Assembly: GCA_030693425.1 (NCBI GenBank)
Contig: JAUYAM010000003.1
Span: 1-57,372 of the forward strand
Direction: 5' to 3'
DNA length: 57,372 bases
DNA from: a bacterium
GTDB lineage: Bacteria > Patescibacteriota > Minisyncoccia > Minisyncoccales > GWA2-46-15
Shown here: positions 16,453-48,836 of the stretch, piece after piece
How the letters are laid out: every line of letters begins with the position of its first letter
How positions within the stretch are numbered: position 1 is the first letter of the stretch
Position numbers and translations under genes: made by a program
The notes under the pieces: generated by a model
Told to the model about the DNA's origin: nothing
Databases searched by the model: none
Seen by the model: only the letters and a program-made list of their open reading frames with translations

Positions 16453-16473
16453 AAACCCCTTCTCCTTTCCGCT

Positions 16474-16492
16474 AAAGGAGCTTAGCTCCTTT
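16474..16492. repeat. Perfect 19-bp palindrome AAAGGAGCTTAGCTCCTTT
   Basis: Read directly. Translates as KELSSF in the extended yraN ORF. Confidence 0.9.
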
Positions 16493-16577
16493 TTCTTATT
16501 TCTGCCCATTAAGTTGTTTAAGCCGGTTAAACAACTGTCTAAAATTTGCTTTATGCGCATATATACATCTATTTGAC

Positions 16578-16602
16578 CCCATTGACGACAGTCGTCAATG
16601 GG
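16578..16602. repeat. REP-like perfect palindrome, family 1 (CCCATTGACGACAGTCGTCAATGGG)
   Basis: 25-bp perfect palindrome in the comM-yraN spacer. Same core (TTGACGACWGTCGTCAA) as the copies around the transposase gene at 19781-20494. Confidence 0.9.
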
Positions 16603-18176: not shown

Positions 18177-19053
18177 AGTATTTGTTACCTTCTTGTTTTA
18201 TAAAGCCTTTGATTTGCATTAAAGATAGGTCAGCGCTGATTTTTGAAACCGGCAGAGACAGGAGCCGGGCTAAGCCATCGGCTTCCATAGGCTCTCTCTT
18301 TAGATTTTCCATTATTTTCCTTTCCAGATCGCTCATTCTAACCAAACCGGTCTTGACTCCGACCAAACTCGGCTTAGTCAAGGAGATGTTGAAAAAACTC
18401 AAAATGTCTTGGGCTTGGGTTACCACCGCGGCTCCATCCTTGATTAACTTGGCCGTTCCCTGAGAAACTTCGCTCGTCAATGGTCCTGGCACGGCAAATA
18501 TCTTCCGGCCAAAACTTTTGGCGTGTCCCACCGTAATGAAAGTGCCAGAAACAAGACCAGCCTCGACTACCAAAACGGCCTGGGAGAGTCCGGCCACAAT
18601 TCTGTCCCTTTTGGGATAGGTCCACAGGGCCGGCGAAAAACTTCCTTCGAATTCCGAGAGAATTAAGCCCCTGTTCTCTAAAATTTTTTGGTAAAGTTCT
18701 TCTTGATATTCGGGATGGATTAAATCTATACCGCAGGGCATAACGGCAATGGTCCTGCCGCCAACTGTCACCGTCGCCCGATGGGCCGCTTCGTCCCCGC
18801 CGTACATGAAACCGGAAACAATCGTCACTCCTGCTGCGGCAATTTCTGAAACCAGAAGTTCGGTCATCCGCCGGCCATAGCTCGTGAATCTCCGAGAACC
18901 CACCACCGCCAGACAATTTTCAAAAATATCATTGTCCCACTCGCCTTTATAATAAAGCTTCTTGGGCGCCCCCTTAATTTTCTTCAACAACCTCGGGTAT
19001 CTTTTGTCTTTTAATTCGACAGAATTAAACTTATTTATTTCAATAACATTCAC
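18166..19053 (-). CDS. dprA: DNA-processing protein DprA (Smf)
   Basis: VVGSRRFTSYG...VSGFMYGGDEAAHRA...VVEAGLVSGTFITVGHAKSFGRKIFAVPG Rossmann core plus a C-terminal winged helix. GTG start. Overlaps comM by 11 nt. Confidence 0.93.
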   Translation of the reverse strand: MNVIEINKFNSVELKDKRYPRLLKKIKGAPKKLYYKGEWDNDIFENCLAVVGSRRFTSYGRRMTELLVSEIAAAGVTIVSGFMYGGDEAAHRATVTVGGRTIAVMPCGIDLIHPEYQEELYQKILENRGLILSEFEGSFSPALWTYPKRDRIVAGLSQAVLVVEAGLVSGTFITVGHAKSFGRKIFAVPGPLTSEVSQGTAKLIKDGAAVVTQAQDILSFFNISLTKPSLVGVKTGLVRMSDLERKIMENLKREPMEADGLARLLSLPVSKISADLSLMQIKGFIKQEGNKYYVS

Positions 19054-19107: not shown

Positions 19108-19740
19108 CTACATGGTACGAGCCAGGGTGAAGCCAAAAACCCTCTTTACTCCCGACTTTCTTAAAACCTTGGCACATTCTTTCATTGTCGCTCCGCTTGT
19201 CCAAATATCATCTACTAGTAGAACATTGTCACTAAAGGAGCTAAGCTCCTTTCTTCGAAAGGAATCTTTGACGTTGACTAACCGCTTTGTCTTGTCTAAT
19301 TTTGTTTGGGACGGCGTGTCTTTTATTTTTTCCAGCAGAGGTAATATCTTTTTCCTTGTAATTTCTCCGATTTTTTTGGCTATTAATTCCGCCTGGTTAA
19401 ACCCTCTCCGTCTTTCTTTTTTCTTGAAAAGGGGCACAAAAGTTATTATTGTGTCTTCCGGAACATACGGTTCTCTTGTTTCAAAAGCCTTTTCAACAAG
19501 CTCGTCGATGGCGTCAAACATCCCGTCGTATTTAATTTTAAAAATAATCTCTTTGATCAACCCTTCGTACTCCCAACAACTAACCACTTCCTCCACGCTT
19601 CCCTGTTGAAAAAGACTGGGGGCTTCGGAAAGAAATAAGCTGCATTTTTCGCAAATATACTTTCCCTCTTTGCCGCAACCAACGCAACTTCTCGGCAAAA
19701 TTATATCCAAAACCGTCTCTTTTAATTTCTCCCACATCAT
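19108..19740 (-). CDS. comFC: ComF-family phosphoribosyltransferase-like competence protein (ComFC)
   Basis: N-terminal Cys4 (CVGCG...CEKC) and the PRTase motif VLLVDDIWTSGATM. Confidence 0.9.
   Translation of the reverse strand: MMWEKLKETVLDIILPRSCVGCGKEGKYICEKCSLFLSEAPSLFQQGSVEEVVSCWEYEGLIKEIIFKIKYDGMFDAIDELVEKAFETREPYVPEDTIITFVPLFKKKERRRGFNQAELIAKKIGEITRKKILPLLEKIKDTPSQTKLDKTKRLVNVKDSFRRKELSSFSDNVLLVDDIWTSGATMKECAKVLRKSGVKRVFGFTLARTM
19234..19252. repeat. Perfect 19-bp palindrome AAAGGAGCTAAGCTCCTTT inside comFC coding sequence
   Basis: Read directly. Encodes KELSSF just before the PRTase motif. The central base is A, so it is inverted relative to 16474. Confidence 0.9.
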
Positions 19741-19756: not shown

Positions 19757-19779
19757 TCATTGACGACAGTCGTCAATGA
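19757..19779. repeat. REP-like palindrome family 1 (TCATTGACGACAGTCGTCAATGA), immediately 3' of the transposase gene
   Basis: 23-bp perfect palindrome, ending 2 nt before the stop codon at 19781. Confidence 0.9.
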
Positions 19780-19780
19780 A

Positions 19781-20494
19781 CTAATCTTCTAATGTTAATT
19801 TCCCTAATTCATTATCTAAATTTACTTGTTCTAAACATTGTTTTGCAAATTCTTTATATTGTTCCGGGCCTAAAAATAATTCTCCTAAAATATCTTTATC
19901 GATAATTGGAGAATCTCTTTTGCCCGCATAATCTGCCAAACTGCAATAAGGATATTTAATCGCCCAATCATAAGCTTTTTCAAATTCATTAACCGCTTTT
20001 TTGTATCCCCCTGGATACATTTCAAAAACATTTTTTACTTGAATGTACACGCTAAGATACTTAAAATATATTTCTTCATCTATTATTTTTGACCTATACG
20101 GACCCTGAAATAGTCTTCCATTTTCTTGGTGTCTTGTATTAAAATATTTTGCCATGCTTGTCCCGAACCTTTTCATAAAAAAACTTATACCGTTCTCCCT
20201 GATTTCTTTCAGAAACAAATGATAATGATTTTCCAATAAGGAAAAGCTAATAATCTTTACAAGCGGTTTTCTTTCCGGCCAGTTGCCCGGCCAAATAAAT
20301 GGCTTATTGACGACAGTCGTCAATGAAGTCTGTATTTTATAAAAGGGGTTGGCCGCTACAAATTCATCGTTAAGATAATATAGTATTTCTAAAAAGTGCC
20401 ACTTGTCCTTATTATCTCTAACAATTTCTTGCTTTCTGTTCCCGCGATTATATACATGCACGAACGAACCAATTGTAATTTTTTCTCTTTGCAT
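19781..20494 (-). CDS. IS200/IS605-type Y1 HUH transposase-like protein (REP-associated tyrosine transposase-like)
   Basis: 237 aa. An N-terminal VHVYNRGN strand, an HUH motif in LLENHYHLFLKE, and a Tyr-containing helix YLSVYIQVKN. Flanked by cognate palindromes. Confidence 0.85.
   Translation of the reverse strand: MQREKITIGSFVHVYNRGNRKQEIVRDNKDKWHFLEILYYLNDEFVAANPFYKIQTSLTTVVNKPFIWPGNWPERKPLVKIISFSLLENHYHLFLKEIRENGISFFMKRFGTSMAKYFNTRHQENGRLFQGPYRSKIIDEEIYFKYLSVYIQVKNVFEMYPGGYKKAVNEFEKAYDWAIKYPYCSLADYAGKRDSPIIDKDILGELFLGPEQYKEFAKQCLEQVNLDNELGKLTLED
20306..20324. repeat. REP family 1 palindrome (ATTGACGACAGTCGTCAAT) inside the transposase ORF
   Basis: Read directly. In frame, encodes SLTTVVNK about 30 aa upstream of the HUH motif. 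Confidence 0.9.
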
Positions 20495-20509: not shown

Positions 20510-23500
20510 TCATTGACGACTGTCGTCAACTGTCATTGGGCTTGGCACGGTTTCTAGCGACGCTAAAGGCTCGGGCGAGGGTTCGGGGCTGGGCGCGGGC
20601 GACGCTGCCGGGGTTTCACTTGGGGATGGTCCTTCGACAGGCTCAGGATAAACTACAGGCGATTCGCTCGGCGCCGGAGAAGGTTCTGGCGTTGGCGACG
20701 GCGTTTCCGGCGGCAGTGCGTTAACACCTGACGTTAAATCGGGCGCACCAACGTCAGGTGTTGGCGCGGCTGGTAAAACCGAATTATTAGACTGCGGGAA
20801 GGGCTGGTTGGCAGCGGATTTATCGCAATCCCCACGGAATTTCTGCCACTCGCCGTTCTCAATCCAGGTGCACCAGATCTCTCCGGTAGCCCGGTCAACC
20901 ATTTCAATCTTGTCCACGCGGGCGGTCTCGGCCGTGACTTTTCCGACAATGATTTCTTTGAGCTGAGCAATGCCGTTTTCCAGAATCAGGCCTAGAGAAG
21001 CTAAAACCTGCTTGATTTTCGCTTCCAGCCAAGGCATGGGCGTTTCCGAGCCGATGCCGCCTTCAGAATTCAAGTCAATGCCTAAAATTGTTTTAATCTC
21101 GGCAATGTCCTGATTTTGTTTCTTGGCCACTTCCAAGAGATAAAGCGGGATCTTGTCGTATTTCAAGCCATTGGGAAGGCCGTCTTTGTCGTAAATAACC
21201 AACTCGCCCAAACCGACATTGGCAAATTCTTCGGCAATAAAGCCGATTTCTTCATGGCCAGAGGCCTTGTCAGTAAAGAGTTTCGGCGAAACTTCTAAGA
21301 TTTTATTAAAGTCGACTTCAAATAAACGGATGTTATCTTTGTATCTTTGAGAAGAGGAATCGTAATAGAAGTTGCCGGTAGCAGTGTCAACCCTGACAAG
21401 ATTGTAACTGGCTGTGCCGGTCAGGCCGGCAACGGCAAATTTGGTTCCAGGAGCTGTCGTCCCGATGCCGACGTTGCCGCCTGCCAAAATGACAAACTTG
21501 TCTCCGCCGACACCAGTAGATGAGTTTACTTCAAAAGCATTGGCAGTGGCGCCATCGGCCAAAACAATCTTTTGGCCAACCACAGCCGTAGAGCCGATAT
21601 TCAAAGTTAAGCTGGCCCCGGCTAAAGTCACCACGTCGCCAGCTTGAGTAAGCGTGGCATCGCCATTGTCCCAGTTAACCACCCCGCCTTCAGCTAAGAA
21701 CAGATCTGAGAATTGTAAAGCGGTTGTGCCTAAATAAGCGCCGTCATTGGCATCGGGAACGAAACCGGTGGCAGCGGAAACCAATATTGATTGCAGTTGC
21801 GCCGTAGAAGCATTGAATATCAAGCCGGCATTTGTTCTAGCGCCTAAACTACCGGACGCCGCTGTCGCAAACAAAGGAAAAGAGGTGGTGTCAGCCGCTT
21901 CATCTGCCACTGTCACAGTGACGGCGTTGCCCGTGATTGAACCGGCAATGACATTGGTAACTTCCAGGTCAGTAAACCAGCCTTTTACCACGCGGGTGCC
22001 TGTCGCGCCTAAAGAACCTGTAATGTAAGATGTCCCAACTACATGGAGCGGAGCGCCTGGATCTATTGTCCCGATGCCGACGTAGCCGGCAAAATAAGCG
22101 GCGCCGTCTGAATCAATGTTAGCCACTTCGCTTCCGTTTTTGGTTTGGATGGAGAGTTTGGTGTTTCCGGAATTATCGCCGAGTTTTAGGTTAAGGTTAG
22201 CCTGGTTATTGGCTTTAATGTTGGCGGCGGTGAGGGAATCAATTGCCAGTTCTCCCTCGGTCATGGTCAGGCTGCCGGTGAGGGTTAAGTCTTTAGTAGT
22301 AATGGATTTTTGGACAGTTAAATCACCGGACTGGCTCATGGAAAACTTCCCGCCGGCGACACCGAAATCAAACTCTTTGGATTTAAGCTTGCCGGAAAAA
22401 TTGGCAGTCACAGCGTTTAAGTCTTTGACAACAGTCAAATCTCCGTTTCCGGAGAGGTTGGCTAACTGGGTCTTAACTCCTAGATTATCTAGTTTATAAA
22501 ATGTAATATTTCCGTCAGTATCAACAGCCAAATTCGGGTTGTACCAGGAAATATTTACCAGCATTGATATTTTTCCACAGGTTATAGAAGGATCGGTGCC
22601 GGAAGGACAGTTAATTATTTGCTCCGGATGATTAATTGGGTCAAAAGCCTCTAAGGCCTTGCCCACTGACGGTCCGACGTTGGTGGCTTTCATGCCAAAG
22701 CCGGGAATGGCGGAAGAGGTAAGAATATCGCCGATGTTGACTTGACCATTGGCAGTAGAGACTTTTATAGGAACTCTACCAGACATGGCAATGGGTTGAG
22801 GATTAGTGGAAAAATTAATTACTGCTCTCCCGAATGTTTGGACCGGAGAAGTTGAAACAATTCCTAATACCTCTTTCTGATAAGATTGATCAGCTTTTTT
22901 TACAATAGTTACTGTTTTTTGTTCGTTTTCGCCAAGAAGTTCTCCAGTTAGAGCGTTTACCTTAGGAGATTCGTAGTTCAAGGTTTGATTTGTGGCTGAA
23001 ACAATGTCAGCCGGCTCAACTCCGGTTTCTGCAGGATACCACTCGGCAATGTCTCCCGGCGCTGCTGAGCAAGCAACAATATCACGGTCGACAAAAGTGG
23101 TATCAGAGTCGGCACCTGAATGGCACAGTCCATTGGTGGTGGCGGTACCATTAGAATCAAGTTGAATATCCCCATTAACCTCAAATTCTTGACTCGGTGC
23201 CACCCCGATGCCGACGTAGCCGGCAGCGGTTATTGTCATTCTTGTAGAAACAGCGGCGCTGCTTTCAGTAGTTTGAAGATAAATTGCTCCGCCAGTGCCA
23301 TCAGTTGTTACGCTTACACCGCCAACTCCACCCCTTAAATATAAAACTCCTCCTGTGCCGCCAAGTGTATCTCCAGTCCCGCCTATTCCACCATATACAT
23401 AAGCATTTCCGCCAGCGCTACCTTGTAGCCCACCAGCTCCCCCAGTTCCACCCCTTAAATATGAAGCCCCGCCAACGCCAGAAGTATCTGAAGTCCCGCC

Positions 23501-26500
23501 AGAAGCCACTCCGCCTGTTCCTCCAGTTAAAGTAATTCCTCCGCCTGCTCCGCCCACCCTTGTTGTTCCTATCGTAGTTGCCGTCCCGCCAGTTCCTCCT
23601 GTAATAGTTGCAGTTCCACCTTTACCGCCAGTAGAGGAGGTCGCAGCCGAACTGGCAACACCTCCAACTCCACCCGCAAAAGTAAAGTCTGCTCCTATTC
23701 CGCCAACTCCAGTTGAAGCAATTGAGGTTGTCCCGCCTATTCCGCCTGAAATTACCAAAGTATCTGTTGCCGCAGTCCCCGGAGTTGTGCCGGCATCCGC
23801 GGGTTGTGATCCGGCAATGTTGAGCACTGCAGTTGGTGTCGCGTCTCCGATGCCGACGTTGCCAGTAGAATCTAATATCATTTTTTGATCCGCACCGATA
23901 TACCAGTTGAAGCCGGGACCCCTGAAATCAAGGCCTGTTGACGAAACACCTAACCCGTGTACCGCATTACTATCACCATCGTCATAGAGCTTAAGTTTCA
24001 TATTCGCTCCTCCAGTATTTGAATATGTGCCTCCGAGTGACAACGTAACAGGAGTAGCTGTTTCTACCGGGCTTTGTGTTCCAATCTGGAGAGTATTCAA
24101 CGGACTGGTCGTCCCGATGCCGACGTTACCAGCATTTGTAATTGTCACAGCAGCATTTGTCAAATCTGCACTTGTGACATCAGCGGCTGATTGAGCCAAA
24201 AAGTGTAATGACCCTCTACCATAAGTAGAAGTTCGCTCGAATACAATCGCTGACTTTATTGGATAATCAGAACCACTAGAATATGAAGCAAACCCCATGC
24301 CCACAAAAGCATTAGTAGCTATATTTCCTTGTATACGTAGGTCAAATGTGTTTGGCGCAGAGTACTGAATATGAAGTCTACCTTGTGGCGCTGTCGTCCC
24401 GATGCCGACGTTGCCGGCTCCTGCTTCTGAGACAAAAGCATAGGTGTTGGTTACAGACGATCCTCCACTGGTGGTTGGCGCGGCGGCATAGTTCAGGTAG
24501 AGATTGGTGACCACGCTGGTTGTCCCAATCCCGATGTTTCCGCTGGCATAGTTGACAAACAGATTGGTAAGTTGGGGCGATGTCCCTCCTATCCCAATGT
24601 TCGGTCTGTTGTATAAACCATAGATCGAAGTTACCGGAGTAGCCGAAGCCATTGTTCCCGTGTAACTGTTGTTGAGCTTGGTGGTGTAGTATGTTCCCGC
24701 ACTGACGGCTGTAACTGACTGACCAATATCCAAAGTTCCTCCTGGCCCCGTCGTCCCGATGCCGACGTTGCCACTGTTTGTTATTCTCATTCTCTCGTCG
24801 GCCATCCCCACTGGGCCTGCATCGGAAGCAGAATCATTTAAAAATACTATATCGCCCTTACCCCAAAAACCAGTAGTGTTAACGTATCCAATAGCACCCT
24901 TTCCCATTCTCCCCGCCGCACCATCCACAAGAAAATTTTGAAAAACGGTATATCCGATGTCATTGTAGGGATTTGCAAGGATTGAGGCGTAGACAACTCC
25001 CGATGCGGCGACAGGTGAAACGTGAAGTGTGGCTAATGGTCCCGTTGTCCCGATGCCGACGTTGCCGGCATTTGCTTCTGTGACAAAAGCATATTTGTTA
25101 GTCAAGGTGCCTGCGGTTACTGTAGGAGCGGCGATGTAAGAACCATACCAATTTGTTACCGTTGTCCCACTTTTATTTAAAGTAAAACCACTCTTTTGAT
25201 TGAATATGTTGGTAACAGTATTACCAGTGTATGTGGGATTGACATCCAAATAACCGCCCGGAGACCCTGTCGCGATGCCGACGTTGCCCCCACCTGTAAC
25301 TAGTGCGTAACCAGTAGTTGAAGTAAAGTAGCCCCCAATACCCGATGAAGCATTCTGTCCATACACGCCATAGCCGGTACTGCTGTTATATCCATGCACA
25401 CCTTTGCCGGCGGCGCCAGCGTTAGATCCATACACGCCGTAGCTGGTGCCGGTGCCATATATGCCGGCGTTGGCTACACCGGCACCTCCAACACTCAATG
25501 TCGATATGGGTCCCGTTGTCCCGATGCCGACATTCCCGCCTGCCAGGATAACAAACTTGTCCCCGCCCACTCCGGCTGAAGAATTGACTTCAAAAGCATT
25601 GGCAGTGGCGTTGGCAGCCAGGACAATCTTCTGGCCGACTACGGCAGTGGAACCGATACCAAGGTGCAAAAGGGCAGTAGGTGCCGTCGTCCCGATGCCG
25701 ACGTTGCCGCCTGTATTGAAATAACTGTTTCCGTTATACCCTCTAAAACGAATTGTTGGAGTTACGCTACTATCACTACTAAATAAGTCGAAATATCCGC
25801 CTGAGTTATTCCCTAACAAAGATCCTGCACGGATAGAGCCAGTTGTTAAATTTATTCCAGTACCTTCTGTTGCACCAACTATGTCTAACTTATACCCTGG
25901 CCCTGTCGTCCCGATGCCGACGTTGCCGCCGTCATACACTCCAAAAATTGTGGAGCCATTGTCCCTTGCCAAGAAAATTGGGGAAGTTTGAGTACCATTG
26001 TCTGCAATTAAAGCTGCTGATTCAAAAGTGGGTGTAGTATTTTGCAGCCCAAAATAACCAGCGATTTGTATCGGAGAGGTGCCGGTATTAAGTCCAAAAG
26101 CGGCTAATCCAATATTTGTGGCTGAGTTCTTGGCAATGGTAGCTCTGCCTAAGATGCCGAAATTTACATTGCCGTTTTCTCCCAAACCAAACAGACCAAT
26201 GTTTGTACCCGTTGTTGTACCATAAGCTAGACTGTTATTGCCTATATTGGTAGAAGGAGAAGTAGCTGCGGTAGAAAGATTCAAATTCGTCCCTGTTCCC
26301 GCGACCGAATTTCCGATAAATAATCCACGGGCACCAGAAGTACCCGTGTAACCAGCATTATATAATATTCTCATTGCTCCATTGTTAAAACTGGAACTTC
26401 CAGCACTGGTAACATTAACATCGATTCCAAATTGCACATTTGTTATAACTGTGGGTTGGGTGGCGGTTATACTTAAACTATTAGTCTGGTCAGTAAGTGT

Positions 26501-29500
26501 TCCACTTGCAATATCCAGTGTTGCCCCCGGTGCCGTCGTCCCGATGCCGACGTTGCCGCTACTATCAATTCTCATTCTTTCGGTAGAACTTTCCGAGCCG
26601 TCGGCAGTTGTCCAAAAACTTAAACGCCCTGGCATATCTCCTGCACCTGGTGTGCCATCTACGTAAGCAGCGATGTATGCGGCAGTTGACTGATAGTCAA
26701 CACCATCATCTCCGCCCCAAGCAATCATTCCTAACTGGTCATTGTTTTGTGCGATTGTGTAGCTACCGATGGCAGCATTACGGCTTTTGCCAAAAATTAA
26801 CTTAGGCGCAAGGGCATCTGCTGATGCTCGAAATATACCAATTGATGAATCTACCGCACCCGTTCCCAATACTTGCAATTCTGGTATCTGACCGGCTCCT
26901 GAGCCAGCCGTTAGTGTCACCTGTGATGAGTTGCCAATGATTAAACCAAATCCATTTGATATTTCAGTATCCCCATTAACCGTTAATACATTACCAGGTA
27001 AAGTCGTCCCGATGCCGACGTTGCCGGCTCCTGCTTCTGAGACAAAAGCATAGGTGTTGGTGACCGATGACCCACTATTTAAAGTTGGCGCGGCTGCATA
27101 GTTCAGGTAGAGATTGGTGACCACGCTGGTTGTCCCAATCCCGATGTTTCCACTAGTGTAGTTAACAAACAGATTGGTCAGCTGGGGTGATGTTCCTCCT
27201 ATCCCGACATTCGGCCGGTTATACAAACCATAGATACTCGTCACCGGAGTGGCTGAAGCCATTGTTCCCGTGTAACTGTTGTTGAGTTTGGCGGTGTAGT
27301 ATGTCCCAGCGCTTGCTGCCGTGACTGCCTGACCAATATCCAATGTCCCTCCCGGACTCGTCGTCCCGATGCCGACTAGGCCCGCCGAAGTGACAACGAA
27401 GGAGGCCGTTGCCGAACTATTGACTTGAAAAATTTGTGATGGCGCCGTCGTCCCGATGCCGACGTTGCCGGCTTTCAGATATAAAGTATTGACAATGGCG
27501 CCGGTGTTTACCGATGTGAAAGGCACGACCGAGTTTTGAGTCAGAGTAAAATCCGCGCCCGGAGCAATGTTGGCGATGACCGGAGAGGTAATAGTGGGCG
27601 AAGCGTTAAAAACTGCAAGCCCTGTGCCTGTTTCGTCGGTTACGGCAGCAATCAAGTTCGCAGATGTCGGGGTTCCGAGGAATGTCGCCACACCTGTGGC
27701 AAGTCCACTTACACCTGTGCTGATAGGCAACCCAGTGGCGTTGGTAAGCACACCTGAAGCAGGAGTGCCTAATGCTGGAGCCACAAACGTTTTATTACTC
27801 ATCGTCTGGGCTTTGGTTTTGAAAGTGAACTCATCCACTACATTGGCAAAATCTGGGATAGTCAGAGTCGTAGCCCCAACTGTTTGGGCGGTAAGTGCGA
27901 CATCTACAAGATACGCATTTGTTAATTTAAGAGGAGTAGCCGCGGAAGTTGCGAGAGAGGTTGCAGAAGCTACGCCGAGAGTTGGAGTTGTCAAAGCAGG
28001 CGAGGTTGAAAATACTAAATTAGTTGATGTAGTGCCAGTTGCGCCTGCGGCGGTATAACCCGTGATATTGTTAAATAAAGTAATTGAAGCAGTTGAACCT
28101 CCTGTCCCACCGTCTGCAACTGCAACATCATTTCCTCCTGTGCTGTAAATTGTTCCCGTTATTCCTTGTAGAGTTAGAGTTGTCGTTCCCGCTACTGCGG
28201 CGGCATTCAAAATAGATGAACCAGAAGTTGAACCGGCGAGAATAAACTTATCAACAGCCCCTCCGATAGTTCCAAATGTTTTAGCTCCTGTTACCGTTTG
28301 AACAGAAGCAAGAACCATATCTCCAGCCCCGGCAGTAGCCCAAGTTAATACTCCCGCACCATCTGTTTGCAATAATTGGTTCGCGGTTCCATCATCGATG
28401 GGTAGAGTAAGCGTGTAAGTTCCTGCTGCTGCGGCAGGTTGAATGATAATTTTACCAGAAGTATTGCCAGCAAATGAAATAACACCCTTAGTAGTTCCTG
28501 CTAATCCTAATGATAATAATTCAAGTGGTGCCGTCGTCCCGATCCCTACATTCCCGCCTGCCAGAATGACAAACTTGTCCCCGCCGACTCCGGCAGAAGA
28601 GTTGACTTCAAAAGCGTTGGCAGTAGCTCCCGAAGCCAAAACAATCTTTTGACCGACAACAGCGGTGGAACCGATGCCTAAATGTAATAAAGCGGTGGGA
28701 GCGGTAGTGCCGATGCCCAGATTGCCGTTAATTCCTACAACATCTGTCGAAAAATCTCCCCAGATTAAAGGCGAGGAGGAATTTGAATTTTCAATGTATA
28801 GTTTATTAGAGCCCGTTTCGTTATATCCTGCTTGATAGCCAAAAAATATGTTGCTGGAACCATCGCCATTGTAACCAGCTGCATAACCTATCAAGACATT
28901 ATTAGTGCCGGTATTAAGGGCGGCAGTAGTATAGCCAATAGCAATACTATTGCCTCCAGCAATGGCATTTTTACCCACAGCCACAGCTTGATTGCCGGTC
29001 GTGCTCGCATCGGATCCTATGGCCACGCCCCTGTAAGCAGCAGAAGCGTTGGAACCAATAGCAACGGCTCTGCTGTTAGTAACGGTAGCAACGTACCCTA
29101 TTGCCACTGATTCGGTAAAAGAACCGACAGAAGCAAGATAACCAAACTTTTCGCTCGAACTATTGGTCAAACTTGTAATATTTCCGACCACCTGCAAGGC
29201 TGCTATCGGTTCCGTCGTCCCGATGCCGATGTTGCCGCTTCCTAAAATTGTCATTGCTTGGGCCAGAGCACTGTCTGTGGTGCTGGTGATGGCGGTAATG
29301 CTGACAGTTGCTCCTGTCCCTGTTCCGCCGGTGGTTACCTTGCCCGTGCCGGTCGTGTAGCCTGTTCCTGCCGCCGCCGGAGCCGTGTTCAAGGTTAGAA
29401 CCACGCCGCTTCCATCAACTGTGGCTACCGTCACTGTTCCACCCGTTCCTCCAGTCGTAACCGTCAAAGTGTCAGCGGCAGTGTAACCAGTCCCGCCAGC

Positions 29501-30955
29501 GGTAGGTGTTGCGCTTATGGTGCTGATACCTCCTGTGGTTAGAGCAGAAGAAGTCCAGAACTGTATTTGTCCCGTCCCCGTTCCCGTGGAAAGACCAGAA
29601 GAAAGAACCAGTGACCCACCATTTTTATCTGTGGCCCCACTGGTTGCTCCACCGGCATTGACCGTCAAAGCATATCCGGCCGTATCGGCAACCGTCCCCC
29701 GTTCCATACCAAAACCTCTGGCCGCATCGCCGCCTAATCCAAGTAAACGAGTCGGTCCCGTCGTCCCGATGCCGACGTTGCCGGCAGTGGAATCAATGAT
29801 CAATCCATAAGAAGTGCCTGATGTGACTGTTCCTCCGGTTATCTTTAAGCCGGTAGAGGTGACTGTACCCGTTGTTTGAGTGATATTCGGCATCGTGACG
29901 TCAAGCCCTGTCCAGGTGTCTGTGCCGGTGAGTGTGTTCTGGACCAAGGCGCCGCCGGTAATAACCAGGCCTTTGTAAGCATAGGTTGAGGCGCCGGTGT
30001 TGGTGACAGCCGGCAAGCTAATGGTTTGGCCGGTCGCGGAATAACCCGTGGCCGTGATATTGGTTGACAAATCTATTGCCTGGCCAACCAAATTGCCTGC
30101 TAAAGTGGCGGCTGCTCCGTAAGCCAGGTTCAGGACAGTGCCCGAAGTATTCTTGGAGTTTAAATAAGCCAGGTTGGCAGAAGAGACATTGGTGCCGGTT
30201 AAAGTCAGGGCCGTGGCATTGGATCCTGGCACGGCTGACAGGATGGTGAAAGCGCCGGTTGAGGGTGTAGTAGAACCAATGCCGGCGGGCGAACCCCAGG
30301 TATAGCCGCTTAATTGCTTGGCTTCAAAGGCAGCCGGCACTGCGCCCAAAACTTTTCTCGGCTTCATTTCCGAGTCAGCGCCGACAGTGACGCCTAGATA
30401 AAGCGTCTGGTTGAAGTTGACTGAACTCAAAGATGTAATTGTCCCTAGCATTGTCGAGAACAAGCCGTTCTTAACATAAATCCGATTGGTAATGTCGTCG
30501 TTACTCACCCAGGTTGAAGCCGGATCGTAAAAGCAGACATAACCGCCAGCTCCTGCGGCGCTGACTGACTGAATGACGGCTGATTCCTTTTTGGTCGTGT
30601 TCCACAAATACTGGCCAGCTGCCAAAGCGCTTTCGTTGGTATCGGTGGTATATGCCATCTTATCCACCCCGGTAGCACAGCCGTCATTGGTAAAAGTGGT
30701 GGTGCCGGTTTCGGTAAACAAAGCAGCGCTGGTCCAAGACTCGGTCCAGCTGGTCGAACCGCCGCCGGCAACGGTATAAAGATTGAAAACAATGTCATAG
30801 GCATTGTCAGCCACTGCCTGACTGCTGGTATCAGTTAATTTTCCCTGGTAATTGATTTTTTCATTTATCGCTGCCAAAGACTCCTGGACAAAAACAGCCC
30901 TAAAGAGGAGAAGGAGCAGAAGGATAATACAGATTTTGGCAGCTTTGTTGTTCAT
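20510..30955 (-). CDS. Giant secreted fibre/adhesin-like protein with about 24 GNVGIGTT repeats and a C-terminal tail-fibre-type intramolecular chaperone domain
   Basis: Uninterrupted ORF. Start chosen at ATG 30955 (MNNKAAKICIILLLLLLF... signal peptide). The track start at 31015 would overlap the upstream gene by 44 nt. The tail is Pro/Ser-rich. Confidence 0.9.
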   Translation of the reverse strand: MNNKAAKICIILLLLLLFRAVFVQESLAAINEKINYQGKLTDTSSQAVADNAYDIVFNLYTVAGGGSTSWTESWTSAALFTETGTTTFTNDGCATGVDKMAYTTDTNESALAAGQYLWNTTKKESAVIQSVSAAGAGGYVCFYDPASTWVSNDDITNRIYVKNGLFSTMLGTITSLSSVNFNQTLYLGVTVGADSEMKPRKVLGAVPAAFEAKQLSGYTWGSPAGIGSTTPSTGAFTILSAVPGSNATALTLTGTNVSSANLAYLNSKNTSGTVLNLAYGAAATLAGNLVGQAIDLSTNITATGYSATGQTISLPAVTNTGASTYAYKGLVITGGALVQNTLTGTDTWTGLDVTMPNITQTTGTVTSTGLKITGGTVTSGTSYGLIIDSTAGNVGIGTTGPTRLLGLGGDAARGFGMERGTVADTAGYALTVNAGGATSGATDKNGGSLVLSSGLSTGTGTGQIQFWTSSALTTGGISTISATPTAGGTGYTAADTLTVTTGGTGGTVTVATVDGSGVVLTLNTAPAAAGTGYTTGTGKVTTGGTGTGATVSITAITSTTDSALAQAMTILGSGNIGIGTTEPIAALQVVGNITSLTNSSSEKFGYLASVGSFTESVAIGYVATVTNSRAVAIGSNASAAYRGVAIGSDASTTGNQAVAVGKNAIAGGNSIAIGYTTAALNTGTNNVLIGYAAGYNGDGSSNIFFGYQAGYNETGSNKLYIENSNSSSPLIWGDFSTDVVGINGNLGIGTTAPTALLHLGIGSTAVVGQKIVLASGATANAFEVNSSAGVGGDKFVILAGGNVGIGTTAPLELLSLGLAGTTKGVISFAGNTSGKIIIQPAAAAGTYTLTLPIDDGTANQLLQTDGAGVLTWATAGAGDMVLASVQTVTGAKTFGTIGGAVDKFILAGSTSGSSILNAAAVAGTTTLTLQGITGTIYSTGGNDVAVADGGTGGSTASITLFNNITGYTAAGATGTTSTNLVFSTSPALTTPTLGVASATSLATSAATPLKLTNAYLVDVALTAQTVGATTLTIPDFANVVDEFTFKTKAQTMSNKTFVAPALGTPASGVLTNATGLPISTGVSGLATGVATFLGTPTSANLIAAVTDETGTGLAVFNASPTITSPVIANIAPGADFTLTQNSVVPFTSVNTGAIVNTLYLKAGNVGIGTTAPSQIFQVNSSATASFVVTSAGLVGIGTTSPGGTLDIGQAVTAASAGTYYTAKLNNSYTGTMASATPVTSIYGLYNRPNVGIGGTSPQLTNLFVNYTSGNIGIGTTSVVTNLYLNYAAAPTLNSGSSVTNTYAFVSEAGAGNVGIGTTLPGNVLTVNGDTEISNGFGLIIGNSSQVTLTAGSGAGQIPELQVLGTGAVDSSIGIFRASADALAPKLIFGKSRNAAIGSYTIAQNNDQLGMIAWGGDDGVDYQSTAAYIAAYVDGTPGAGDMPGRLSFWTTADGSESSTERMRIDSSGNVGIGTTAPGATLDIASGTLTDQTNSLSITATQPTVITNVQFGIDVNVTSAGSSSFNNGAMRILYNAGYTGTSGARGLFIGNSVAGTGTNLNLSTAATSPSTNIGNNSLAYGTTTGTNIGLFGLGENGNVNFGILGRATIAKNSATNIGLAAFGLNTGTSPIQIAGYFGLQNTTPTFESAALIADNGTQTSPIFLARDNGSTIFGVYDGGNVGIGTTGPGYKLDIVGATEGTGINLTTGSIRAGSLLGNNSGGYFDLFSSDSSVTPTIRFRGYNGNSYFNTGGNVGIGTTAPTALLHLGIGSTAVVGQKIVLAANATANAFEVNSSAGVGGDKFVILAGGNVGIGTTGPISTLSVGGAGVANAGIYGTGTSYGVYGSNAGAAGKGVHGYNSSTGYGVYGQNASSGIGGYFTSTTGYALVTGGGNVGIATGSPGGYLDVNPTYTGNTVTNIFNQKSGFTLNKSGTTVTNWYGSYIAAPTVTAGTLTNKYAFVTEANAGNVGIGTTGPLATLHVSPVAASGVVYASILANPYNDIGYTVFQNFLVDGAAGRMGKGAIGYVNTTGFWGKGDIVFLNDSASDAGPVGMADERMRITNSGNVGIGTTGPGGTLDIGQSVTAVSAGTYYTTKLNNSYTGTMASATPVTSIYGLYNRPNIGIGGTSPQLTNLFVNYASGNIGIGTTSVVTNLYLNYAAAPTTSGGSSVTNTYAFVSEAGAGNVGIGTTAPQGRLHIQYSAPNTFDLRIQGNIATNAFVGMGFASYSSGSDYPIKSAIVFERTSTYGRGSLHFLAQSAADVTSADLTNAAVTITNAGNVGIGTTSPLNTLQIGTQSPVETATPVTLSLGGTYSNTGGANMKLKLYDDGDSNAVHGLGVSSTGLDFRGPGFNWYIGADQKMILDSTGNVGIGDATPTAVLNIAGSQPADAGTTPGTAATDTLVISGGIGGTTSIASTGVGGIGADFTFAGGVGGVASSAATSSTGGKGGTATITGGTGGTATTIGTTRVGGAGGGITLTGGTGGVASGGTSDTSGVGGASYLRGGTGGAGGLQGSAGGNAYVYGGIGGTGDTLGGTGGVLYLRGGVGGVSVTTDGTGGAIYLQTTESSAAVSTRMTITAAGYVGIGVAPSQEFEVNGDIQLDSNGTATTNGLCHSGADSDTTFVDRDIVACSAAPGDIAEWYPAETGVEPADIVSATNQTLNYESPKVNALTGELLGENEQKTVTIVKKADQSYQKEVLGIVSTSPVQTFGRAVINFSTNPQPIAMSGRVPIKVSTANGQVNIGDILTSSAIPGFGMKATNVGPSVGKALEAFDPINHPEQIINCPSGTDPSITCGKISMLVNISWYNPNLAVDTDGNITFYKLDNLGVKTQLANLSGNGDLTVVKDLNAVTANFSGKLKSKEFDFGVAGGKFSMSQSGDLTVQKSITTKDLTLTGSLTMTEGELAIDSLTAANIKANNQANLNLKLGDNSGNTKLSIQTKNGSEVANIDSDGAAYFAGYVGIGTIDPGAPLHVVGTSYITGSLGATGTRVVKGWFTDLEVTNVIAGSITGNAVTVTVADEAADTTSFPLFATAASGSLGARTNAGLIFNASTAQLQSILVSAATGFVPDANDGAYLGTTALQFSDLFLAEGGVVNWDNGDATLTQAGDVVTLAGASLTLNIGSTAVVGQKIVLADGATANAFEVNSSTGVGGDKFVILAGGNVGIGTTAPGTKFAVAGLTGTASYNLVRVDTATGNFYYDSSSQRYKDNIRLFEVDFNKILEVSPKLFTDKASGHEEIGFIAEEFANVGLGELVIYDKDGLPNGLKYDKIPLYLLEVAKKQNQDIAEIKTILGIDLNSEGGIGSETPMPWLEAKIKQVLASLGLILENGIAQLKEIIVGKVTAETARVDKIEMVDRATGEIWCTWIENGEWQKFRGDCDKSAANQPFPQSNNSVLPAAPTPDVGAPDLTSGVNALPPETPSPTPEPSPAPSESPVVYPEPVEGPSPSETPAASPAPSPEPSPEPLASLETVPSPMTVDDSRQ
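20513..20529. repeat. REP family 1 palindrome (TTGACGACTGTCGTCAA) between the giant ORF and the transposase gene
   Basis: Read directly. The central base is T, so it is inverted relative to 19757 and 20306. Lies 18 nt upstream of the transposase start and supplies the last codons (..DDSRQ) of the giant ORF. Confidence 0.9.
21060..21370 (-). other. Peptidase_S74-like intramolecular chaperone (endosialidase/tail-fibre C-terminal) domain within the giant ORF
   Basis: Translation YYDSSSQRYKDNIRLFEVDFNKILEVSPKLFTDK....EIGFIAEEFANVGLGELV fits the S-x-x-K-x-N-I ... IGFIAqE pattern of auto-cleaving tail-fibre chaperone domains. Coordinates are approximate. Confidence 0.6.
24393..24772. repeat. About 380-bp intragenic direct repeat, copy 1 (partner at 27003-27382)
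   Basis: Long blocks identical by eye (e.g. 'gtcgtcccgatgccgacgttgccggctcctgcttctgagacaaaagcataggtgttgg'). Encodes GGTLDIGQ.VTA.SAGTYYT.KLNNSYTGTMASATPVTSIYGLYNRPN.GIGGTSPQLTNLFVNY..GNIGIGTTSVVTNLYLNYAAAPT. Confidence 0.85.
25515..25708. repeat. About 190-bp intragenic repeat (copies at 21456-21606 partial, 25515-25708 and 28533-28726)
   Basis: Encodes GIGTTAPTALLHLGIGSTAVVGQKIVLA..ATANAFEVNSS.GVGGDKFVILAGGNVGIGTT three times. Nucleotide similarity seen directly. Confidence 0.8.
27003..27382. repeat. About 380-bp intragenic direct repeat, copy 2
   Basis: See 24393-24772. The mismatches are of all substitution types. Confidence 0.85.
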
Positions 30956-30971
30956 CAAAAATAATAAAAAG

Positions 30972-31442
30972 TTATGGCTGGGGAATGGTCGAACCCTGGA
31001 CCTCCTTAGTCTCATCTAAAGAATAATTGGTAAAAGCTGAAAGATTGAACCGGCCGATAGTCTCTCCGCCTGACCCGCCTAAAATGATTTTGTCAACTAT
31101 CATACTTTTAGGTTCGATAAAATCGCCAGCCCCGGCATTAATGTTCAAACCCAGGCCCAAAAAAATAAAAATACCAATACCCACCAAAACAAAAAACCAG
31201 GCCACTAAACCCAAAAGCCGGTCTGGTCTAAATAAACGCCTAAGCCTGACTGCCGGAAGAGAGATTTTTTTTAGGTGAAAATAGTTTTCAAGAGCTTGGT
31301 TAGCAATAAACCAGTCCCGACCGACCATTTTTCCTTTAAGTTTGCCTTTGCGGATTAATAAACCCAAATAATCCGGATGGTAGCCGGAAATATGCGACGC
31401 TTGCTTAAGGGAAAGAAACCCTTTTTCTGGAATAGTGGTCAT
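30972..31442 (-). CDS. Membrane-anchored protein with N-terminal excisionase/MerR-type helix-turn-helix
   Basis: LSLKQASHISGYHPDYLGLLIRKGKLKGKMVGRDWFI fits the HTH_17-type pattern, followed by one TM helix (LLGLVAWFFVLVGIGIFIFLGL). Paralogous N-terminus to 42392-43468. Confidence 0.75.
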   Translation of the reverse strand: MTTIPEKGFLSLKQASHISGYHPDYLGLLIRKGKLKGKMVGRDWFIANQALENYFHLKKISLPAVRLRRLFRPDRLLGLVAWFFVLVGIGIFIFLGLGLNINAGAGDFIEPKSMIVDKIILGGSGGETIGRFNLSAFTNYSLDETKEVQGSTIPQP

Positions 31443-43468: not shown

Positions 43469-43533
43469 TTTAGAATTGCTTGCGGCCGATTGATCCTATT
43501 TCCTCATCTGATATCTTCCTTATAGCTTAGTTC

Positions 43534-43562
43534 ATTTTCCGATAAATAAAAATAGCCGTCAA
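43534..43562 (-). promoter_or_regulatory. Candidate promoter TTGACG-N17-GAAAAT (minus strand)
   Basis: Reverse complement of 43557-43562 is TTGACG and of 43534-43539 is GAAAAT (weak -10). Same geometry relative to the GACTTATCCACA motif as at 31526-31574. Confidence 0.35.
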
Positions 43563-43569
43563 GAAAGGC

Positions 43570-43583
43570 GTTGTGGATAAGTC
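43570..43583 (-). promoter_or_regulatory. Conserved motif GACTTATCCACAAC (perfect DnaA-box 9-mer) 7 nt upstream of the -35
   Basis: Read directly; 13/14 identical to 31561-31574. Confidence 0.5.
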
Positions 43584-43588
43584 AAGTC

Positions 43589-43835
43589 GTATCCGATATC
43601 ATTATCGGATACTAGAAATATTAAGGTAATTTTCTTATCTGTTGAGTTTCCGTTGAGGCCTAACCTCAACAGGAGTAAATCCCTACAACGAGGAATATAC
43701 GGTTCAGCTACGACCGTAGCTGAAAGTGAAGTTAATACCTTCTCCTTGACCTTATTTTTCTTAGTTGACGACTGTCGTCAACGAGGGCACATGATATTTC
43801 GGGTTAAGGCGTGTGCTTAACCTGGTTAAGCACAC
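43589..43835. repeat. Array of five different perfect palindromes spaced 47-63 bp apart
   Basis: 43589-43612 gtatccgata/tatcggatac; 43652-43670 gttgagg/cctcaac; 43703-43724 ttcagctacg/cgtagctgaa; 43764-43782 gttgacgac-t-gtcgtcaac (REP family 1); 43811-43835 gtgtgcttaac/gttaagcacac. Confidence 0.85.
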
Positions 43836-43915
43836 AAGTTACTGACCAACTGAAAAGAGATGACAGGCAAACAATATCTGTGTAAATGATACACATTAGC
43901 ACTATATTGCACAAT

Positions 43916-45751: not shown

Positions 45752-45790
45752 AAAAGGAACTTAGTTCCTTTTAAAGGAACTAAGTTCCTT
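45752..45790. repeat. Two adjacent palindromes AAAAGGAACTTAGTTCCTTTT and AAGGAACTAAGTTCCTT (variant of the AAAGGAGCTWAGCTCCTTT family with a compensatory G>A / C>T change)
   Basis: Read directly, in the ligA / PaaX-like spacer. Confidence 0.85.
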
Positions 45791-47949: not shown

Positions 47950-47977
47950 TCTAAAAATCCCTGCCGAAACAGGGATT
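47950..47977 (-). terminator. Rho-independent terminator downstream of the second transposase gene
   Basis: Minus strand AATCCCTG-tttcgg-CAGGGATT followed by TTTTAG. Confidence 0.5.
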
Positions 47978-48000: not shown

Positions 48001-48019
48001 CCCGAGGTCAGACCTCGGG
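48001..48019. repeat. REP-like palindrome family 2 (CCCGAGGTCAGACCTCGGG), 3' of the transposase gene
   Basis: Perfect 19-bp palindrome 20 nt downstream of the stop at 48039. Confidence 0.9.
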
Positions 48020-48038
48020 TTGCTTCTATTATTTATTA

Positions 48039-48749
48039 TTACTCCAAACCGATTTTTTCCGGGTCATAAAAACTACCCTTATAATCAATTTGTTGATTGA
48101 TAAGATCACGGCACCTTTTTTCTCCGCCAATCGTTTTTAATAAAAATTTCCTTTCGCTGACTGATGGAAAATTCTTCTTGCCAATATAGTCTAGATAACT
48201 CGACCAACGATAATTTTTTAGAAAATGTTTAGCCCTTGCTCGATTTCTGATGCCTTTTTCTTTCCATTTCGGCTCAATAATGGCAAGCGGGTTGGTGTGA
48301 ATATAAGTGAGAACCCTTTCCAGCTGTTTATCGGTCTTGATGTGAACGGCGTGAAACCGTCCCTGAAATAAATGACCGCTACGTTTGTATTTCCGATTAA
48401 AATAAGAGGCATAACCAGTACCCAATTTTTGGATAAATAGACTGATGCCCTTGGGTTTTATCTGCCGTAAAAGCAAATGAATATGATTGGGCATTAATAC
48501 AAAAACTAAAACCTCAACTAATAAAGTCCGTTCAAAATTACCCGAGGTCAGACCTCGGGCCATCTGTTTTTTAAAACGAAAACGCTCTTTTCTCCGATCT
48601 TTAATAGATACTGGTTTGGCATTATTGAACTCGAATAAGGAAAAAATCCCGCGGTAATGATCCGCTTCGTCCAAAAAAATCTGCCTCTGCTCAACTCCAC
48701 GGAGAACGATGTGGTAAATTTCTCCGTCAACTAGCTTTGGTCTTTTCAT
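48039..48749 (-). CDS. IS200/IS605-type Y1 HUH transposase-like protein (second, divergent RAYT-like gene)
   Basis: 236 aa with IYHIVLRGV, the HUH motif in LMPNHIHLLLRQ, GHLFQGRF, and the catalytic-Tyr helix LTYIHTNPL. Confidence 0.88.
   Translation of the reverse strand: MKRPKLVDGEIYHIVLRGVEQRQIFLDEADHYRGIFSLFEFNNAKPVSIKDRRKERFRFKKQMARGLTSGNFERTLLVEVLVFVLMPNHIHLLLRQIKPKGISLFIQKLGTGYASYFNRKYKRSGHLFQGRFHAVHIKTDKQLERVLTYIHTNPLAIIEPKWKEKGIRNRARAKHFLKNYRWSSYLDYIGKKNFPSVSERKFLLKTIGGEKRCRDLINQQIDYKGSFYDPEKIGLE
48541..48559. repeat. REP family 2 palindrome inside the transposase ORF
   Basis: Perfect copy, in frame, encoding ARGLTSG about 20 aa upstream of the HUH motif. Confidence 0.9.
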
Positions 48750-48779
48750 AAATTTGGAAAAGCGATCCGAGATCTAGCG

Positions 48780-48800
48780 TCCCGAGGTCTGACCTCGGGA
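48780..48800. repeat. REP family 2 palindrome (TCCCGAGGTCTGACCTCGGGA), 5' of the transposase gene
   Basis: 21-bp perfect palindrome. The central base is T, so it is inverted relative to the other two. Lies 31 nt upstream of the start. Confidence 0.9.
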
Positions 48801-48836
48801 CAATCTGGTTATTGGGTTATGGCGGGTCGCTTTAGA

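Follow-up and report, generated by a model that had tools for sequence, protein, structure and literature searches.

When a gene for a DNA hairpin nuclease is bracketed by two copies of a short palindrome and holds a third copy within its own reading frame, how did this arrangement arise, what keeps the three copies alike, and does the in-frame copy serve the gene or is it carried along? We address this question for a locus in the 57,372-nt contig JAUYAM010000003.1 (assembly GCA_030693425.1, from an ultra-small bacterium of the Patescibacteriota, GWA2-46-15), which in its entirety is termed the window below and which contains two such arrangements, system 1 and system 2. Our analysis indicates that the system-2 locus is probably a REPtron, a vertically inherited, domesticated class-2 Y1/HUH nuclease gene bracketed by cognate hairpins of the repetitive extragenic palindrome (REP) type, in which the in-frame third copy is old and has been refreshed by copying. 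REPtrons, the presence of several pairs of REPs and REP-associated tyrosine transposases (RAYTs) in one genome, and the co-evolution of enzyme and REP are established (PMC2817692, PMC6006769, PMC8266576). RAYTs are commonly seen as the earliest described case of transposase domestication in bacteria, with the mode of REP spread and the cellular role of the enzymes still to be settled (PMC8266576).

Three hairpin copies at the system-2 nuclease gene

The system-2 locus comprises the following features:

48781–48799, unstranded, upstream hairpin copy, ending 31 nt before the ATG, within the 87-nt spacer that follows a pilin-like gene
48541–48559, unstranded, internal hairpin copy, in frame, encoding A63-R-G-L-T-S-G69
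48001–48019, unstranded, downstream hairpin copy, starting 19 nt past the stop codon
48039–48749, minus strand, open reading frame (ORF) of a RAYT-like Y1/HUH nuclease, 236 aa, with a Pfam Y1_Tnp match

The 19-mer CCCGAGGTCWGACCTCGGG matches the window exactly at the three hairpin sites and, with up to three mismatches allowed, nowhere else within it. As 0.01 matches are expected by chance and none of 100 shuffles reached three, a chance origin was ruled out. On the forward strand, the centre base is A in the downstream and internal copies and T in the upstream copy. An earlier note on this stretch had described the palindrome at three sites, one of them 31 nt before the start codon and one in frame, encoding ARGLTSG about 20 residues before an HIH motif, all of which is borne out by the ORF coordinates; its upstream span (48780–48800) was one base too long at each end, and the 20 nt it gave for the downstream copy correct to 19. 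The centre of the internal palindrome falls on the middle base of codon L66 (CTG), and the copy precedes H89-I-H91 by 20 residues. Folded as single-stranded DNA (ssDNA), either strand of each copy forms a stem of 8–10 bp closed by a CWG loop of 3 nt, with energies of −9.1 to −11.9 kcal/mol and z-scores of −4.6 to −5.7. The stem of the upstream copy is prolonged to GTCCCGAGGTC-N-GACCTCGGGAC (about 48779–48801; −11.7/−11.9 kcal/mol).

The encoded protein matches Pfam Y1_Tnp at 5.3e-10 and displays the motifs NHIH (H89/H91) and FQ, the catalytic Tyr149 within YIHTNP, and a WSS tail, with H89, H91 and Y149 being invariant in 32 homologues. Its Y---NP motif is the signature of class-2 (TnpA-REP-like) enzymes (Quentin et al. 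2018, PMC6006769), and the NCBIfam model transpos_IS200 reached 14.4 bits against a cut-off of 55. An AlphaFold2 (AF2) model based on the 32 homologues (predicted local distance difference test, pLDDT, 84.6) yielded as top Foldseek match 4er8_A, the E. coli TnpA-REP bound to its REP hairpin (E 1.3e-5, TM(target) 0.69), followed by the IS608 and ISDra2 TnpA structures. Sequence search of the PDB chains gave just weak ISDra2 matches (E 0.009), so that the relation to RAYTs became visible because the fold was searched. The Y1/HUH identity assigned in the earlier note is thus confirmed by both the Pfam and the structural match.

A low-copy, syntenic gene under purifying selection

We searched about 5.8 billion proteins, yielding 2925 relatives, and 1.84 billion cluster representatives with a profile, yielding 984 at E≤1e-30. 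From different species-level genomes, nearly all labelled Patescibacteria/Candidate Phyla Radiation (CPR), 80 loci were taken; L numbers below denote these and further loci examined.

Orthologues of the system-2 gene were found in four further lineages (six loci, 76–95% identical), all of them with the pilin-like gene upstream and ligA downstream. The ratio of nonsynonymous to synonymous substitution (dN/dS) was 0.05–0.11 at dS 0.4–2.8 for the four aligned orthologue lineages. This strong purifying selection, together with the conserved position, indicates a functional gene, and by its sequence 48039–48749 encodes an intact RAYT-like Y1/HUH enzyme under strong purifying selection.

This bears on whether the unit of about 800 bp is instead an autonomous IS200-like insertion sequence (IS), with the outer hairpins as its ends and the internal hairpin as an extra transposase site. 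The layout of a Y1 gene between subterminal hairpins is indeed that of IS200/IS605 elements (PMC8266576); moreover, homologues are often found on contigs as short as about 1 kb and scaffold gaps start at hairpins, both as expected of repeats. However, the tyrosine motif is Y---NP and not Y---Q (PMC6006769, Table 1), and no two near-identical copies of the gene were seen in different contexts. The P0018 homologue occurred, with identical protein, in a single context in all ten samples, on which grounds mobility of the gene was rejected. Within-genome paralogues are highly diverged, each with its own hairpin, while the synteny of orthologues is retained at dS>1 and the dprA synteny of the system-1 clade (below) even across phyla. 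We consider an autonomous element very improbable, and the label 'transposase' used in the earlier note is probably wrong, given the retained synteny, the strong purifying selection and the resemblance to domesticated RAYTs.

Hairpin layout and variation across the family

The arrangement extends across the family. Of 79 loci, 64 have at least a 12-mer in common between the variable ORF stretch and the flanks (150 nt before and after the gene), 50 loci doing so with both flanks, as compared with one of 79 for a control stretch of the ORF. A 10-mer or longer recurs between the two flanks at 70 of 78 homologous loci, and the upstream copy lies 15–89 nt before the ATG (median 32). The same three positions are occupied in systems 1 and 2, as had been noted.

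The palindrome-encoded peptide falls within the sole hypervariable, indel-rich stretch of the family protein alignment. In the AF2 model it forms the end of a basic helix (residues 49–64) and a disordered loop (pLDDT<50 at residues 67–71) between this helix and the strand preceding HUH. This location indicates that the protein tolerates any peptide that the palindrome happens to encode. At the internal site, it is the DNA that is conserved and not the peptide.

The hairpins themselves vary by locus (GAGAAC-N-GTTCTC, GAGGAC-N-GTCCTC, GAGGCC-N-GGCCTC, GACGTC-N-GAC.TC and others). They follow a common grammar of a C-N-G centre, an A.T pair at position 5 and a G.C pair at position 6, with the remaining stem positions covarying via several pair types. 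Arm identity is 92–95% among the copies of one locus vs 49% between loci, the own internal copy is the top match to the own upstream copy in 27 of 31 loci, and the distances among hairpins and among proteins are correlated (Mantel r = 0.29, p = 5e-4). The earlier proposal of co-evolving protein–hairpin specificities is thus supported as far as co-divergence goes, but the pairing is loose, since the identical system-2 19-mer also flanks Y1 genes just 36–57% identical to the system-2 gene. The core idea of the earlier note was right and largely known already.

Dispersed copies of the system-2 hairpin

Scanning metagenome contigs for the exact 19-mer retrieved 90 stretches, with 20 copies beside Y1 genes (36–87% identical to the system-2 gene) and about 90 solo copies. 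After deduplication, 76 distinct copies remained, mostly intergenic and on low-GC contigs; A or T runs accompany 42 of these, resembling bidirectional terminators, and several come from samples that also hold orthologous genes. On low-GC contigs we further identified in-frame copies of the 19-mer within unrelated genes, which between them use all three reading phases:

L100:5262, KsgA, peptide PEVRPRE
L165:393, MiaA, peptide TPRSDLG
L185:9673, pyruvate oxidoreductase (POR)-like TPP enzyme, peptide ARGQTSG
L101:7440, GalT/HIT-like protein, peptide PEVRPRG

By this distribution the system-2 hairpin appears to be a dispersed REP-like element. The earlier note had made its idea depend on enrichment of the palindrome elsewhere and on the fate of the internal copy in near-identical homologues; the hairpin is enriched in related metagenome contigs, not in the window, and near-identical homologues retain the internal copy, so that the idea was not refuted on these terms.

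Stems of the dispersed copies run past the shared 9-bp core with complementary bases specific to each copy, the Watson–Crick fraction decreasing from 0.74 to 0.57 over stem positions 10–15, against a background of 0.26–0.33 beyond. Such copy-specific complementary extensions favour a folded hairpin over a fixed duplex half-site, which touches on the possibility that the palindromes are duplex-DNA operators for a symmetric dimer, either of the helical C-terminal domain of the enzyme or of an unrelated regulator. Perfect 9-1-9 palindromes with a conserved C-N-G centre, A.T at 5 and G.C at 6 would suit such an operator, and RAYT subclass 2.1, which is similar in its motifs, has C-terminal tails resembling a helix-turn-helix (HTH; PMC6006769). 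Lengthening of the solo stems by locus-specific complementary bases, however, points to selection or a mechanism acting on pairing, and asymmetric imperfections are shared between copies in either orientation. In addition, the C-terminal region gave no HTH or DnaA_C Pfam match in 32 family members, and the closest solved relative binds a folded ssDNA hairpin. An operator function in duplex DNA therefore appears even less probable than an autonomous element.

Half-hairpins or doubled left arms occur a few bases from full copies at several loci (L129, L146, L148, L164, L166, L181, L186, and L192–L194 around 3230–3270), for example with AGCTAGTTGAGGTCT repeated ahead of GTTGAGGTCTGACCTCAAC. Cutting and rejoining, or else template switching, may have left these traces.

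The three copies change together and in register

Among the system-2 orthologues, the internal hairpin (21 nt) shows 0–3 differences at dS 0.4–2.8, confined to the centre base and the outermost pairs. The arms of the upstream and downstream copies are invariant across the five orthologue lineages, and the intergenic DNA around them carries many substitutions and indels. The position of the internal copy relative to the reading frame is likewise retained: of 44 loci in the system-2 clade, 38 have the palindrome centre on the second codon position, six on the first and not one on the third. The palindrome is free of stop codons in each of the three phases and uses them all in other genes, on which basis avoidance of stop codons was rejected as the cause of the fixed phase. 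With all phases open, this bias argues for one old site kept in register and not for repeated insertion.

In the system-1 clade, which keeps its site in a different phase, replacement of the hairpin sequence could be followed between the system-1 gene of the window, W1 (ATTGACGAC), and its 81%-identical orthologue L187 (ATTGAAGCC), where it has changed at all three sites, the outer copies of L187 having the new inner stem as well, while remaining in the same codons and phase: the internal codons read TCA TTG ACG ACT GTC GTC AAT in W1 and TCA TTG AAG CCT GGC TTC AAT in L187. W1, L187 and L188 align codon for codon; presence, absence or replacement of the hairpin leaves the length unaltered. That each arm has several parallel substitutions at three sites while its length stayed constant is hard to explain by independent mutation and indicates copying between the copies. 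The same is indicated by imperfections common to the copies of one locus (L054, L064) and by L024, where the outer copies have the same non-palindromic 3′ flank as the phase-1 internal copy. Where the internal hairpin is missing (L016, L035, L018, L188), a decayed remnant of equal length occupies the same place, indicating that the internal copy is ancestral and dispensable. It has been lost, with gene and both flanking copies intact, at about 15–20% of system-2-clade loci and at three of the six system-1-clade loci inspected for it. Together, these alignments show that the three local copies evolve in concert, being near-identical within a locus, different between loci, and changing together without a shift of length or phase.

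The alternative that each internal copy is a recent REP insertion of its own into a permissive hot-spot loop, without shared ancestry or copying between sites, has several of the same observations to draw on. The same hairpin has inserted in frame into unrelated genes, the clades differ in phase (phase 2 for that of system 2, phase 3 for that of system 1), the phase-1 copy of L024 has its 3′ flank in common with the outer copies, and the in-frame REPs of RAYT subclass 2.4 have been read in this way (PMC6006769). Nevertheless, independent insertion fits poorly with the 38:6:0 distribution over phases that are all open, with the codon-for-codon alignment of W1, L187 and L188, with decayed remnants at the same place, and with conservation across orthologues at saturated dS, making it the least probable of the accounts considered here.

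At the P0018 locus (L081–L090), the upstream and internal copies read GCAGAGAAC-W-GTTCTCTGC and the downstream copy CGGAGAAC-G-GTTCTCCG. This mismatch is possibly an intermediate in a hairpin switch.

Orientation of the centre base

The palindromes being almost fully symmetric, their orientation is carried by the centre base. Both systems of the window read A/T/T (upstream/internal/downstream) on the coding strand, and the earlier note took the shared pattern, T/A/A in its reading, as a common architecture. The system-2 orthologues, however, show A/T/T, T/A/A and T/T/T on the coding strand, and in pairwise comparison of copies across the family 58% of cases have equal centres, 39% complementary and 4% otherwise differing ones, indicating that the agreement is a coincidence; a conserved T/A/A orientation code was rejected by the orthologues and the family survey. 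Asymmetrically imperfect hairpins, too, are found both ways round, whichever of the three sites they occupy. Flipping within populations, or phase variation, was rejected as well, as the hairpins are identical in the ten samples of the P0018 locus.

In the five system-2 orthologue lineages (L092–L096, L105, L142, L162 and window 48001–48799), the internal and downstream centres are always equal, either T/T or A/A, flipping between lineages, with the upstream centre varying independently. This equality fails family-wide.

A refreshed site or a self-regulatory site

For the REPtron reading, we propose the following sequence of events. By analogy with E. coli TnpA-REP, the enzyme would bind the folded single-stranded hairpin and cut and rejoin the DNA beside it (PMC3479197, PMC8266576). 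This activity would spread the hairpin to intergenic sites, many of them terminator-like, and occasionally into ORFs. Local copies may then be homogenised by copying, either through enzyme-mediated hairpin replacement acting preferentially in cis or through template switching between neighbouring palindromes. The internal copy would be an old in-frame REP that persists as a real substrate site, is refreshed by copying and costs the protein little; once refreshment stops, as in a minority of lineages, it would decay where it stands.

Several points weigh against this reading. Cleavage, strand choice and cut sites are carried over to the family by analogy, and palindrome covariation taken alone fits hairpin recognition and duplex binding by a symmetric dimer equally. 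The canonical 5′ GT[AG]G guide is absent from the hairpin foot of the system-2 copies, whose flanking tetranucleotides on both strands are TTGT, ATGG, GCAA, GCGT, ATTA and TTGT, and no conserved tetranucleotide was found across loci. The NCBIfam model NF047646 (REP_Tyr_transpos) scored 50.6 bits, under its cut-off of 80. Away from its gene, the system-2 hairpin has no copy in the 57-kb window, and its copy number per genome may be far below that of classical REPs. The occurrence of the identical 19-mer beside strongly diverged Y1 genes suggests that enzyme specificity for the hairpin may be broad. Finally, the age of the internal copy and its conservation at the nucleotide level at saturated dS fit direct functional selection at least as well as passive refreshment.

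The last point leads to the main alternative, namely that the internal hairpin is a selected cis-regulatory site, in which the enzyme binds its own hairpin, on the non-template strand, in a cruciform or in the mRNA, and together with the upstream copy throttles its own synthesis by negative autoregulation or attenuation. Binding to an own site demands that this site always match the specificity of the enzyme, and the internal copy does always track the flanking ones. Its nucleotide conservation extends to dS of up to about 2, its loop position and codon phase are constant across a family of about 1000 clusters, and the short distance of the upstream copy to the ATG would suit such a role. Tight self-limitation is, moreover, usual for transposase-derived genes. 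The coding-strand centres are biased (CAG 13 vs CTG 3, CCG 15 vs CGG 5), which could, however, stem from Q and P being favoured over L and R where the loop is disordered. Further evidence against a regulatory site comes from the loci that have lost the internal copy with gene and flanking copies intact and from the internal orientation, which is not fixed; no relation of the hairpins to a promoter or ribosome-binding site emerged. We regard autoregulation as rather unlikely. Nucleotide conservation, age and covariation on the one hand and minority loss on the other do not separate a refreshed passenger from a self-regulatory site.

A bolder version of the REPtron reading would make the in-frame hairpin no passenger but an obligatory part of a self-referential module, in which the nuclease would recognise one hairpin at the three sites of its locus and rewrite it there from time to time. 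The gene would thereby hold a live copy of its specificity within the coding sequence, used to control or to maintain itself. We consider this doubtful, more so than simple autoregulation. If true, thousands of natural enzyme–hairpin pairs with the hairpin in the ORF would amount to a direct code for HUH hairpin specificity.

System 1 and further features of the window

The second arrangement in the window consists of:

19781–20494, minus strand, system-1 paralogue Y1 gene, 237 aa, 27% identical to the system-2 protein
19759–19777, hairpin ATTGACGACWGTCGTCAAT after the gene
20306–20324, the same hairpin, in frame
20512–20530, the same hairpin before the gene, with 1 mismatch
16581 and 43764, solo copies of the system-1 hairpin (2 mismatches)

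At 27% identity the two proteins are clearly diverged, as the earlier note had stated. Downstream of the system-1 gene follow a ComFC-like gene (19108–19740), DprA (18166–19053), a ComM-like gene (16635–18176) and YraN (16063–16560), and the solo hairpin at 16581 closes the comFC-dprA-comM block. The Y1-(comFC)-dprA-comM linkage was present at eight of eight system-1-clade loci examined, Omnitrophota records included (54–100% identity; L187–L191, L194 and L195 among the loci), which suggests a tie between this nuclease clade and the processing of incoming ssDNA. More speculatively, the comFC-dprA-comM linkage of system 1 and the pilin-like/ligA linkage of system 2 may hint that the domesticated nucleases and their hairpins act on incoming ssDNA during natural transformation of CPR bacteria.

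Apparent dprA/comM deletions bounded by hairpins in L192 and L193 proved to be artefacts of 100-N scaffold gaps, which lie at or near hairpins (L192:3308–3407; L193:3248–3347 and 4434–4533). As gaps start at hairpins, assemblers evidently break there, and gene-call tables can mimic deletions.

Close to the system-2 gene lies one further hairpin:

47953–47976, minus strand, separate hairpin ATCCCTG-TTTCGG-CAGGGAT followed by a T-run, read from the sequence and unlisted by the consensus scan (tentative)

This is likely, if tentatively, the terminator of the Y1 gene, ahead of the ligA promoter-like GATATAAT. In the spacer between a PaaX_M-domain gene and ligA, a nested perfect palindrome, AAGGAACTTAGTTCCTTT A AAAGGAACTAAGTTCCTT followed by GGAAGTTCCTTA, occupies 45754–45790.

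Perfect matches to the DnaA-box consensus TTATCCACA are enriched beside the family genes, with 12 of 40 matches (in 1.08 Mb) lying within the gene ±200 nt vs about 3.3 expected. Mostly they stand just 3′ of the downstream hairpin, 29–97 nt past the stop codon in L019, L023, L025, L033, L038, L039, L051 and L069, and 70 nt upstream in L190; none adjoins system 2 in the window. That the enzyme has a DnaA_C or HTH tail which might account for these boxes was rejected, as none of the 32 members gave such a Pfam match.

The 447-nt spacer before ftsW (43469–43915) contains a DnaA box at 43572–43580 and a cluster of different hairpins:

43589–43612, hairpin
43652–43670, hairpin GTTGAGG-CCTAA-CCTCAAC, similar to those at L191 and L194 of the system-1 clade
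43703–43724, hairpin
43764–43782, hairpin, system-1 variant
43811–43835, hairpin

The spacer is a cluster of several REP families, similar to a bacterial interspersed mosaic element (BIME). Its interpretation as a replication origin was unsupported by the neighbouring genes. A giant ORF of 3501 aa (20510–31015), whose last codons overlap the system-1 upstream hairpin, gave no Pfam match at E≤1e-4. No tRNA genes were found in the window, for which no Rfam search was made.

Significance

With about 1000 diverged clusters, and the hairpin written three times at the gene in most of 79 loci, the family provides a ready table of enzyme–hairpin pairs for the study of specificity, which is also useful for HUH-tag engineering. 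The simultaneous, in-register replacement of hairpins seen in the alignments points to a putative copy-and-replace activity, and the lack of constraint on the peptide of an in-frame REP offers a simple test of whether that REP is functional DNA. Furthermore, the family shows that REP-like elements and RAYTs are frequent in Patescibacteria, a group with small genomes that generally pass for repeat-poor.

Comparison with known systems

The earlier note had read two transposase–palindrome pairs in one window as a sign of co-evolution. Both pairs are real, but RAYT–REP pairs, their co-evolution and in-frame REPs had already been described (PMC6006769, PMC8266576). Our literature search yielded no description of RAYT/REP systems in Patescibacteria, with a 2026 preprint mentioning only a K07491 match in an archaeon.

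The closest known systems are the REPtrons, exemplified by E. coli TnpA-REP (PDB 4ER8; PMC2817692, PMC3333891, PMC8266576). In common are the Y1/HUH fold, the Y---NP motif, a gene bracketed by its own hairpin, a hairpin that is apparently dispersed as well, mostly between genes, a low-copy, syntenic gene under purifying selection, and several divergent pairs in one genome in which enzyme and hairpin co-evolve. In contrast, the Patescibacteria family lacks the GT[AG]G guide, as do the published subclasses 2.6 and 3, and its hairpins are short, perfect palindromes, with flanking copies of variable instead of inverted orientation. The enzyme, at about 236 aa, has an extra basic helix, a loop before HUH and a helical tail, matches the NCBIfam RAYT model below its cut-off, and resides in Patescibacteria hosts.

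RAYT subclass 2.4 (Bertels group 4; Quentin et al. 2018, PMC6006769) also carries cognate REPs within the gene, with the frame intact, in a variable surface-exposed region and with further flanking copies, and these were treated as tolerated insertions. There, the insert lies between the HuH and Tyr motifs, whereas here it precedes HuH by about 20–25 residues; the motifs WQ and YIxNNP and a median of 194 aa stand against FQ, YIHTNP and 236 aa. Moreover, site and codon phase are here conserved family-wide, and the copy is replaced in register with the flanking ones.

Subclass 2.1/TIRYT (Quentin et al. 2018, PMC6006769; Di Nocera 2013, PMC3733652) is similar by motifs only. Its reference motifs are NH[VYF]H, FQ or W[EQ], Y[IV]HLNP and an SS tail at about 238 aa (PMC6006769), and in common with the present family are the length of about 238 aa, NH[IVYF]H, FQ, Y[IV]HxNP and SS in the proximal tail. 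It is, however, reported without REP-like hairpins near the gene and with HTH/DnaA_C-like tails, whereas the present family has hairpins at 70 of 78 loci and no such Pfam match.

The TnpA enzymes of IS200/IS605 (IS608, ISDra2), the second-best structural matches, are likewise Y1/HUH enzymes acting on subterminal ssDNA hairpins, with the gene lying between the hairpins. They differ by Y---Q, about 150 aa, many identical copies and no hairpin inside the ORF, as compared with YIHTNP, 236 aa and no duplicated copies seen here. Rickettsia palindromic elements (RPEs) and intragenic REPs (PMC3733652) resemble the system-2 hairpin in being short palindromic repeats in frame in functional genes. RPEs are longer, and no nuclease gene is linked to them in PMC3733652; here, the best-conserved intragenic copy resides in the gene of the presumed mobilising enzyme itself. 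What sets the present systems apart from the known ones is the Patescibacteria lineage, the site before HuH, the absence of a GTAG guide, the near-symmetric perfect palindromes, the family-wide conservation of site and phase, and the signs of in-register replacement at three sites.

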